Shown: positions 11,651 through 12,242, counted from the first letter of the stretch. The stretch: 64,000 bases of DNA from a virus (IMGVR_UViG_3300020048_000009:128001-192000), one strand, 5' to 3'. Program-made: numbers and translations. Notes: generated by a model from the letters alone, not told the origin.

Positions 11651-11953
11651 ATGAGAAAAATAGACGAATTAAAGTTAAAGAATAAAGAAACAAGTAAACA
11701 ACTTAGAGAAAGAAATCTCAAGTTAAAAGAGAACCAGAAGCAAGGTAAATGTTGTAGTAATGAAATGTGTTCATTGTATTATGCTAGAAAAGAATATAGA
11801 CATTATCACATTGCCTATTGTGAGTTAAGAGGTAGAACTAGGGATCAGATTGAAAAACCTAGACGTGGTAATGAAGTAAACGAACAGCTTATTCAAAATA
11901 TTAAAAATGAATATGCATGGGAAATTCTCGATACTGGAGCAAACAATGAATAA
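11651..11953 (+). CDS. Basic 100-aa protein of unknown function, coupled to the Pth2-like gene
   Basis: YRHYHIAYCELRGRTRDQIE motif; stop overlaps the next ATG (ATGAATAA). Confidence 0.75.
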   Translation: MRKIDELKLKNKETSKQLRERNLKLKENQKQGKCCSNEMCSLYYARKEYRHYHIAYCELRGRTRDQIEKPRRGNEVNEQLIQNIKNEYAWEILDTGANNE

Positions 11954-12242
11954 ATTATATGTTTTAGTGAGAAAAGATTTATCTACATCTTATCAAGCGG
12001 TTCAAGCTGGTCATGCTGTGGCGGAATGGTTACTTCAAAACCATTAGGGTTCCGAATGGAAAAATAATACATTAATATATTTAGGTGTAAAAGATTTAGA
12101 TGATCTTAATCACTGGATGGAAAAACTTAAATATAAAAATATAGAATTTTCAGCATTTAAAGAACCTGATATTGGAAATGAAATAACAGCAATCGCATGT
12201 TTAAATGATGGTAAATTATTTTCCAGTCTTAGATTATTATAA
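11946..12242 (+). CDS. Pth2-like peptidyl-tRNA hydrolase with in-frame TAG at codon 34 (not in ORF track)
   Basis: MNKLYVLVRKDLSTSYQAVQAGHAVAEWLLQNH[TAG]GSEWKNNTLIYLGV...FKEPDIGNEITAIAC...LRLL*; GGAG SD at 11936-11939; TAG 12045-12047. Confidence 0.85.

Follow-up and report, generated by a model that had tools for sequence, protein, structure and literature searches.

A PTH2-like hydrolase gene with an in-frame amber codon, in a candidate self-gated amber-suppression operon of a jumbo phage

The DNA considered here is a window of 64,000 nucleotides (IMGVR_UViG_3300020048_000009:128001-192000; positions are counted from its first letter unless a genome coordinate is given), which belongs to an IMG/VR virus record whose parent is a single contig of 211,678 bp, with 29.8% GC, 25 transfer RNA (tRNA) genes and a CheckV completeness estimate of 84%, and whose source is a jumbo phage. 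The gene under study, on the plus strand at 11946-12242, encodes a protein with the fold of the PTH2 peptidyl-tRNA hydrolases, is interrupted at codon 34 by an in-frame amber codon (TAG), and is followed by the gene for a tRNA with the amber-reading anticodon CUA, here called tRNA(CUA). To judge from related loci, this TAG is a real and maintained codon, not an assembly error, and we consider it probable on balance that it is read through and that the gene forms part of an operon which gates its own expression by amber suppression.

The frame consists of 33 codons, the TAG at 12045-12047, 64 further codons and a TAA, and a GGAG stands at 11936-11939, six bases 5' of the ATG. Direct reading of the interval thus bears out an earlier note, made from the sequence alone, which described a 98-codon frame led by a GGAG Shine-Dalgarno (SD) sequence, and the motifs quoted there (KLYVLVRKDL, QAVQAGHA, LIYLGV, EPD and TAIA) were all found in the translation. 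Two other contigs keep the TAG: one of 12 kb (X2), which comes from the lake metagenome of a separate study and is about 99% identical over 865 bases, and one (X3) from a further sample taken in the source study. Within the gene, X2 differs 3' of the TAG by two substitutions (12053 and 12194), both of them synonymous changes at third positions, and in the nearest DNA relative (locus L001) the 64 codons after the TAG comprise 14 identical, 25 synonymous and 25 non-synonymous ones. Given that the nine family-invariant residues after the TAG (W38, N40, Y45, L46, E73, P74, D75, T81 and F92) are all retained and that the changes in X2 are synonymous, the pseudogene-like decay that was looked for in the downstream half is absent. 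In the structural model, codon 34 sits in the loop between the helix of residues 14-32 and the strand of residues 43-48, which is the least confident part of the model, and a product of the 33 residues before the TAG would have no more of the fold than its first strand and first helix, in agreement with the claim that the truncated product could not fold.

The comparison rests on 53 loci: the window itself, 48 loci retrieved from IMG/VR by way of the protein family, and four phage records of GenBank. An internal TAG is present in 10 of the 53, and an internal TAA, TGA or frameshift in none. Seven of these ten TAGs fall in the loop between helix 1 and strand 2, at differing codons, and the other three at other variable columns; in TAG-free relatives, glutamine encoded by CAG is common at the loop positions, and at codon 34 itself a 95%-identical protein from another sample (P0001) has Gln. 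On a maximum-likelihood tree, nine gains or losses of the TAG are needed, at least six of which are forced by well-supported branches. A TAG in the same loop is also carried by metagenome-assembled contigs labelled as Acidobacteria, which were found in a scan of species-representative genomes, and in a divergent branch of the family, as well as in the GenBank record L054, the hydrolase gene opens with a TAG at codons 2-5. An in-frame stop thus recurs within the gene, as is expected of circuits of the prfB type.

The tRNA(CUA) gene (12246-12322, plus strand; identified by ARAGORN, Rfam tRNA score 61.2 bits) begins 3 nucleotides after the TAA of the hydrolase gene. It encodes its CCA end, has a short variable arm, an A4:A69 mismatch and G73, and is the only tRNA gene of the phage that lies outside the tRNA cluster at 83-93 kb of the genome. 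A tRNA(CUA) gene on the same strand is found within 3 kb in 46 of the 53 loci and is downstream in 45, and in about 25 loci it begins 0-30 nucleotides past the hydrolase stop. Together with the recurrence of the TAG and the conservation of the codons after it, this placement supports, by comparison, the claim that the full-length product is conditional on suppression. The spacer is zero in six loci (L002, L004, L005, L008, L014 and L019), where the tRNA begins on the base after the hydrolase stop, so that processing by RNase P would leave a messenger RNA ending exactly at the stop codon. The linkage persists at 30% identity in Mycobacterium phage Myrna, where a tRNA(CUA) lies 129 nucleotides downstream of gp84; it was not seen in the distant members XacN1, RAS14 and the Aeromonas T4-like phages, and in XacN1 and RAS14 the PTH2-like domain forms the end of a larger protein. 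In Yersinia phage fHe-Yen9-04, a tRNA-Sup-CTA is present and the gene preceding it is not PTH2-like, which means that not every phage suppressor tRNA has such a partner. Over 36 consecutive bases (window positions 12254-12289), the tRNA(CUA) is identical to this fHe-Yen9-04 tRNA (L059:2494-2566), in phages that are otherwise unrelated.

The discriminator base and the acceptor stem of the tRNA(CUA) vary across the loci, and glutamine is suggested as its amino acid by the CAG/Gln found at homologous positions alone. RNA genes of two further kinds were observed near related loci. In Prevotella phage Lak-B4, a tRNA with the ochre-reading anticodon UUA (L053:1853-1925) stands about 500 bases 5' of the hydrolase homologue, in place of tRNA(CUA), and five related loci (L023, L024, L025, L026 and L035) have a phage-encoded transfer-messenger RNA (tmRNA) gene no more than 3 kb from the module.

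As to the identity of the protein, the Pfam family PTH2 (PF01981) is matched at 24.2 bits against a cut-off of 23 when an X residue is placed at the TAG, which is a marginal match, and a six-frame search gives 22.8 bits, or 23.3 with neighbours. The protein also matches phrog_1866 and phrog_3668 ('hydrolase'), and a profile built from 62 homologues retrieves the solved Pth2 structures. The AlphaFold2 model has a mean predicted local distance difference test (pLDDT) score of 95.3, and the best 15 Foldseek matches in the PDB are all proteins of the PTH2 fold, both solved Pth2 enzymes and uncharacterised relatives, with template modelling (TM) scores of 0.62-0.80. On the other hand, the NCBIfam Pth2 equivalog (PRK04322) fails, with 15.8 bits against a cut-off of 126, and the position of the canonical G-K lysine, in profile alignments to 2zv3 and 24bt, is a variable Tyr, Gln or Ser, here Tyr16. 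That lysine and the aspartate of the D-A-G motif reportedly have a catalytic role, according to work on the Pth2 of S. solfataricus. Because the branch is divergent in these two respects, the gene is named PTH2-like. The Pth2 assignment of the earlier note is therefore supported for the fold and not for the enzyme class, and the profile check that it proposed just reached one family and missed the other.

By profile and model, the gene belongs to a divergent branch of the PTH2 fold, whose enzymatic activity is putative. The protein has the same alpha/beta fold as Pth2 (PF01981; M. jannaschii 2zv3, S. solfataricus 1xty, human Bit1 1q7s), and its A-x-Q-x-G-H-A and E-P-D motifs align with the canonical A-Q-x-x-H-A and D-A-G; the residues invariant in the phage family are Q20, G22, H23, W38, N40, Y45, E73-P74-D75, T81 and F92. 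It differs from Pth2 in being about 17 residues shorter and in having W38, N40 and Y45 as invariants of its own, and its gene differs in being tied to tRNA(CUA), usually to a second gene that we call gene X, and sometimes in being interrupted by TAG. A contig of one related locus (L035) holds a canonical PTH2 gene (G005:C1:31274-31645, 104 bits) besides the divergent tRNA-linked one, and the two types are therefore not redundant copies.

The second place where an amber codon recurs is the leader of the operon. An SD sequence, AAGGAG at 11528-11533, lies 7 bases 5' of the ATG at 11541, which opens a mini-ORF (open reading frame) on the plus strand at 11541-11585, encoding MNNDKVKC, a TAG at 11565-11567, VLKPP and a TAA at 11583-11585. 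The eight-codon upstream reading frame reported in the earlier note, which according to a speculative proposal there could produce the substrate of the hydrolase, does exist, ending at this TAG; it lies some 380 bases upstream, as the operon leader, and is separate from the hydrolase gene. An SD-led mini-ORF with TAG as its first stop stands about 80-115 nucleotides 5' of the start of gene X in 29 of 34 distinct loci, against two such mini-ORFs that stop first at TAA and three at TGA. The leaders take the form M-x(1-10)-UAG-(V/I)-x-x-Pro-Pro-stop, usually as ATG, one codon, TAG, V/I-x-K/R-Pro-Pro and a stop, and in that of the window the TAG is preceded by eight sense codons. A purine follows the TAG in all 29, and Pro-Pro is present in 22 of the 29 read-through peptides, in 18 of them immediately before the stop. 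Since the CCN codons used for Pro-Pro vary, selection acts on the stretch after the leader TAG at the level of the peptide. Each of three genomes of 212-274 kb has a single instance of the full pattern, always at the operon, and none with TAA or TGA in place of TAG. In E. coli, a Pro-Pro at the C-terminus causes arrest at termination in every context tried (PMC3834316). In a dozen leaders (L002, L004, L005, L006, L008, L014, L020, L021, L023, L024, L029 and L035) the second stop is also TAG, and a second read-through at this codon is conceivable there.

Between the leader and gene X, a hairpin is predicted at 11582-11646 (plus strand), with the leader TAA in its 5' arm and the SD of gene X (AAGGA, 11638-11642) in its 3' arm. 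The minimum free energy (MFE) of the region 11520-11670 is -20.3 kcal/mol, with z = -2.8 relative to shuffles, and the two indels that distinguish X2 here (11599 and 11619) fall in the hairpin loop and leave the stems unchanged. In most related loci, the partner of the SD of gene X in the MFE fold is a stretch rich in C and U, located at the Pro-Pro-stop or directly past it; of 27 loci that were scored, roughly half have a pairing partner that begins no more than about 5 nucleotides from the leader stop. The region shows two marks of an attenuator, a conserved SD-led reading frame upstream and an arrest-prone peptide that is conserved at the level of its amino acids.

Gene X itself (P0122; 11651-11953, plus strand) encodes 100 residues with a near-invariant HIAYCELRGRTRDQIEKP motif, and its stop overlaps the start of the hydrolase gene by 8 nucleotides. 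Downstream of the tRNA, the operon ends in a terminator-like hairpin with a T run at 12366-12400 (plus strand; 15-pair stem); two terminator-like sites were found, against 0.2 expected in shuffles. As far as the compared genomes tell, the arrangement of leader, gene X, hydrolase gene and tRNA is conserved across dozens of phages. At least 36 loci have gene X immediately 5' of the PTH2-like gene, and gene X is fused in frame with the hydrolase in nine loci (seven of them distinct) and in the database proteins P0203 and P0252.

If the operon works as these features suggest, ribosomes would halt at the leader UAG when there is no active suppressor, the hairpin would stay closed, and neither X nor the hydrolase would be made. 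With charged tRNA(CUA), ribosomes would proceed for about five codons and pause at the Pro-Pro-stop, on the 5' arm of the hairpin; the paused ribosome would free the SD of gene X, X would be translated, and translation of the hydrolase would follow via the 8-nucleotide overlap of stop and start. In ten of the 53 loci, the window among them, the hydrolase would then need a second read-through, and because the codon-34 TAG demands it, hydrolase output would climb more steeply than suppression.

The phage genome, as its coding statistics indicate, is not recoded for TAG and keeps the standard code. Coverage by coding sequence is 0.880 under the standard code and 0.867 with TAG as a sense codon, so that coding density is not raised, and TAG ends about 29 of the approximately 320 called genes. 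Of the marks of a genome of genetic code 15, the phage-encoded tRNA(CUA) is present, and neither many genes with in-frame TAG nor a rescue of coding density was found. A search of the phage genome for a release-factor gene found none. Elsewhere in the genome, only three other pairs of coding-like ORFs are joined by TAG, and PHROG support is absent for all three. Two of these, at genome positions 68780-69373 and 98241-98774 (G000:C1; L056 and L057), show a lone TAG flanked at either side by coding-like sequence, without a PHROG match, and are candidates for further read-through targets of the suppressor. The third, at window positions 37746-39146, is a 95-codon ORF that ends in TAG and continues in frame, across a second TAG, into a radical-SAM gene; it was set aside as probably two genes, since the radical-SAM gene has its own AGGAG and ATG at 38076.

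Several findings weigh against the self-gated operon. No in-gene TAG is present in 43 of the 53 homologues, and the 95%-identical relative has Gln, which implies that the in-gene checkpoint is dispensable and that the TAG could be a tolerated polymorphism. The SD of gene X is paired with a median probability of 0.83 across loci and 0.64 in shuffles, a modest excess, and RNAalifold, applied to 14 leader regions, found no consensus structure, because their alignment is too divergent. The related loci are phylogenetically dependent on one another. About 29 genes of the phage end in TAG, and an efficient suppressor would extend them. The failed equivalog and the variable lysine position count on the same side. 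A prediction of the complex of X with the hydrolase scored 0.00, which is evidence neither way.

The absence of the TAG from most homologues and the Gln of the closest relative are what would be expected if the in-gene TAG were a neutral, tolerated nonsense polymorphism with no regulatory role, in which CAG had changed to TAG in a permissive loop and had not been purged owing to the co-inherited suppressor; each TAG does stand at a variable surface position, seven of the ten in one loop. The suppressor, however, accompanies the whole genome, yet among the approximately 320 genes no other has a homology-backed in-frame TAG. One small gene has gained the TAG at least six times, the divergent branch has it at codons 2-5, and the leader uses it in 29 of 34 loci; taken together, these four points argue for selection for UAG dependence and leave neutrality improbable. 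That the codon marks a pseudogene with a nonsense mutation, or an assembly error, is how one would ordinarily interpret a lone early stop at codon 34 in a gene of 98 codons, and gene callers using table 11 split the gene. It is hardly credible here, given the TAG in independent contigs, the synonymous substitutions after it in X2, the full set of invariant residues, the ten TAGs to no TAA or TGA among the internal stops of the homologues, the lack of frameshifts, and the cognate tRNA 3 nucleotides downstream. An early stage of genome-wide recoding of TAG to Gln (code 15), with the hydrolase gene affected first by chance, would agree with the 29.8% GC, the rarity of TAG as a stop and the suppressor tRNA, which fit a proposed route to recoding (bioRxiv 10.1101/2021.08.26.457843), as well as with the 16 TAG-joined ORF candidates, against three joined by TGA, of a related 274-kb genome (G001) and with the homologue of the hydrolase held by Lak phages. 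The in-frame TAGs of recoded phages, however, cluster in structural and lysis genes and not in a tRNA-linked hydrolase (bioRxiv 10.1101/2021.08.26.457843), and this explanation accounts neither for the leader and gene X nor for the recurrence of TAG in a single gene at standard coding density; we regard it as quite unlikely.

A further alternative keeps the gating and changes its purpose. X and the hydrolase may act as a brake, hydrolysing the ester bond by which the suppressor tRNA itself carries its aminoacyl or peptidyl group. Strong read-through would in that case call forth its antagonist and keep suppression at a set level, in a negative-feedback homeostat like the control of prfB by RF2. 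This shares the evidence for gating, that is, the recurrent in-gene TAG and the leader TAG; in the prfB, ermC and secM circuits, the induced product opposes the condition that is sensed; the tolerance of a suppressor despite some 29 TAG-terminated genes would be explained; and the very tight pairing of hydrolase and tRNA, down to 0 nucleotides, suggests a specific relation. However, known PTH2 enzymes act on N-blocked, peptidyl-tRNA rather than on free aminoacyl-tRNA and are not tRNA-specific, a reading of the anticodon by X has no support, and producing a brake from the transcript that also carries the tRNA seems wasteful, which makes the brake a rather doubtful option. The clean-up role that we would tentatively attach to the self-gated operon is likewise only a possibility: X would be a basic adaptor, and the hydrolase an ester hydrolase, which together handle the tRNA-linked products of suppression on demand, the products to be cleared being peptidyl-tRNA and ribosomes that have run past natural UAG stops. 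It fits the view taken of PTH2 in jumbo phages (PMC7824862), the ArfA-like logic, the fusions and the tmRNA genes near five loci. Clean-up and brake are about equally tenable. In a broader and rather speculative proposal, the operon would be a natural, self-contained regulator of stop-codon reassignment, in which the leader measures UAG read-through, and the hydrolase and the adaptor X set the level of suppression or clear its by-products.

The product of gene X is a basic helical protein, whose near-invariant motif lies around H-I-A-Y-C-E-L-R-G-R-T-R-D-Q-I-E-K-P, and its family comprises 1225 representatives at 50% identity (E <= 0.001). The model (pLDDT 89) is a long helical hairpin with two short helices. 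Pfam, PHROGs, NCBIfam and PADLOC gave no match, nor did a sequence search of the PDB, and the Atlas yielded nothing. A fold search of the PDB and of the AlphaFold clusters returned nothing significant, only generic helical hairpins, among them the tRNA-binding arm of seryl-tRNA synthetase (E > 1). In tblastn, gene X has no match in GenBank phages, and a profile comparison finds it unrelated to the hydrolase. No in-frame TAG was found in the X genes, except at the apparently degenerate locus L003.

The proposed operon resembles several known circuits in part. As in prfB, which encodes RF2, an in-frame stop (UGA in that case) within a gene that resembles one for a translation factor would report on its own decoding and set the output of the gene; prfB differs in using +1 frameshifting and in sensing a release factor, whereas plain read-through by a dedicated tRNA is proposed here. 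With the ermC and cat leaders and with secM-secA, the operon shares a short SD-led upstream reading frame, and an arrest-prone end, to which is added a predicted hairpin that would hide the SD of the following gene and extend over the site of arrest. Since the arrest site would be reachable only after read-through of the UAG, the signal sensed would be suppressor activity and not, as in erm and secM, the presence of a drug or the state of secretion. ArfA is made only when trans-translation fails, and ArfB consists of a hydrolase domain with a basic tail; the likeness lies in a rescue factor that would be made upon the failure which it repairs, and in a small basic helical protein and a hydrolase that are sometimes fused here. 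Searches by sequence and by fold linked X to neither ArfA nor ArfB, and PTH2 enzymes differ from both in acting off the ribosome. Finally, most related leaders are two-codon mini-ORFs with a strong SD, like the bar minigenes of phage lambda, and the window leader has eight sense codons. Two-codon minigenes with a strong SD shed peptidyl-tRNA, which is recycled by Pth. The bar minigenes differ in being toxic accidents in Pth-defective hosts, whereas the mini-ORF here is conserved, stops specifically at TAG, and runs on into a read-through peptide that is conserved as well.

The code-15 phages (crAss-like, Lak, Agate and others; bioRxiv 10.1101/2021.08.26.457843; PMC9523058) share with this one a phage-encoded tRNA(CUA), an in-frame TAG that needs read-through, low GC, the rarity of TAG as a stop and the idea of a code change that gates expression. 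They differ in that the code is standard here and the in-frame TAG confined to the operon, and in that the hydrolase and the leader would be gated, in place of genes for lysis or structure. The 'code change module' reported in such phages comprises tRNA, aminoacyl-tRNA synthetase and release factor, without a hydrolase and without TAG (bioRxiv 10.1101/2021.08.26.457843). The presence of PTH2 in jumbo phages has already been noted, in a review that does not mention suppressor tRNAs or amber codons (PMC7824862), and the paper on XacN1 states explicitly that no target was found for its tRNA(CUA) (PMC5852040). Our literature search returned no published account of the operon and no paper that joins PTH2 with a suppressor tRNA or amber gating.

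Many large phages with the standard code carry a lone tRNA(CUA), and the operon offers a conserved natural target for it: the first genes that the suppressor controls appear to be its own companions. If the proposed role holds, the 'orphan' amber-suppressor tRNAs of jumbo phages would have their long-sought target in this operon and not in the late genes, and X would represent a new family of tRNA- or ribosome-binding proteins. If the gating is true, no natural circuit that senses nonsense suppression would have been known before this one; the operon could represent an intermediate on the way to full recoding of TAG, and would supply a ready part for synthetic expansion of the genetic code, made up of a read-through sensor and of a hydrolase-adaptor pair that belongs to a single tRNA. 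Two uncharacterised protein families are also defined, the divergent PTH2 branch and X, the latter with more than 1200 cluster representatives.

Some observations concern the wider genomes. In G001, which is the contig of locus L012, the 16 ORF pairs joined by TAG include those at 183965-188497 and 246630-253481, and one very long ORF terminates in a tandem TAG-TAG; this genome may be partly recoded for TAG. In the window, a promoter scan 5' of the leader gave no more matches than chance, and a 51-codon ORF at 11337-11492, below the 60-residue threshold for listing, occupies most of the apparent gap 5' of the leader. About 500 bases 5' of the operon lies a gene for a Thg1-type tRNA-His guanylyltransferase (10352-11134; Pfam 101.6 bits, phrog_4717), which is preceded by an AAA_28/thymidylate-kinase-like gene.

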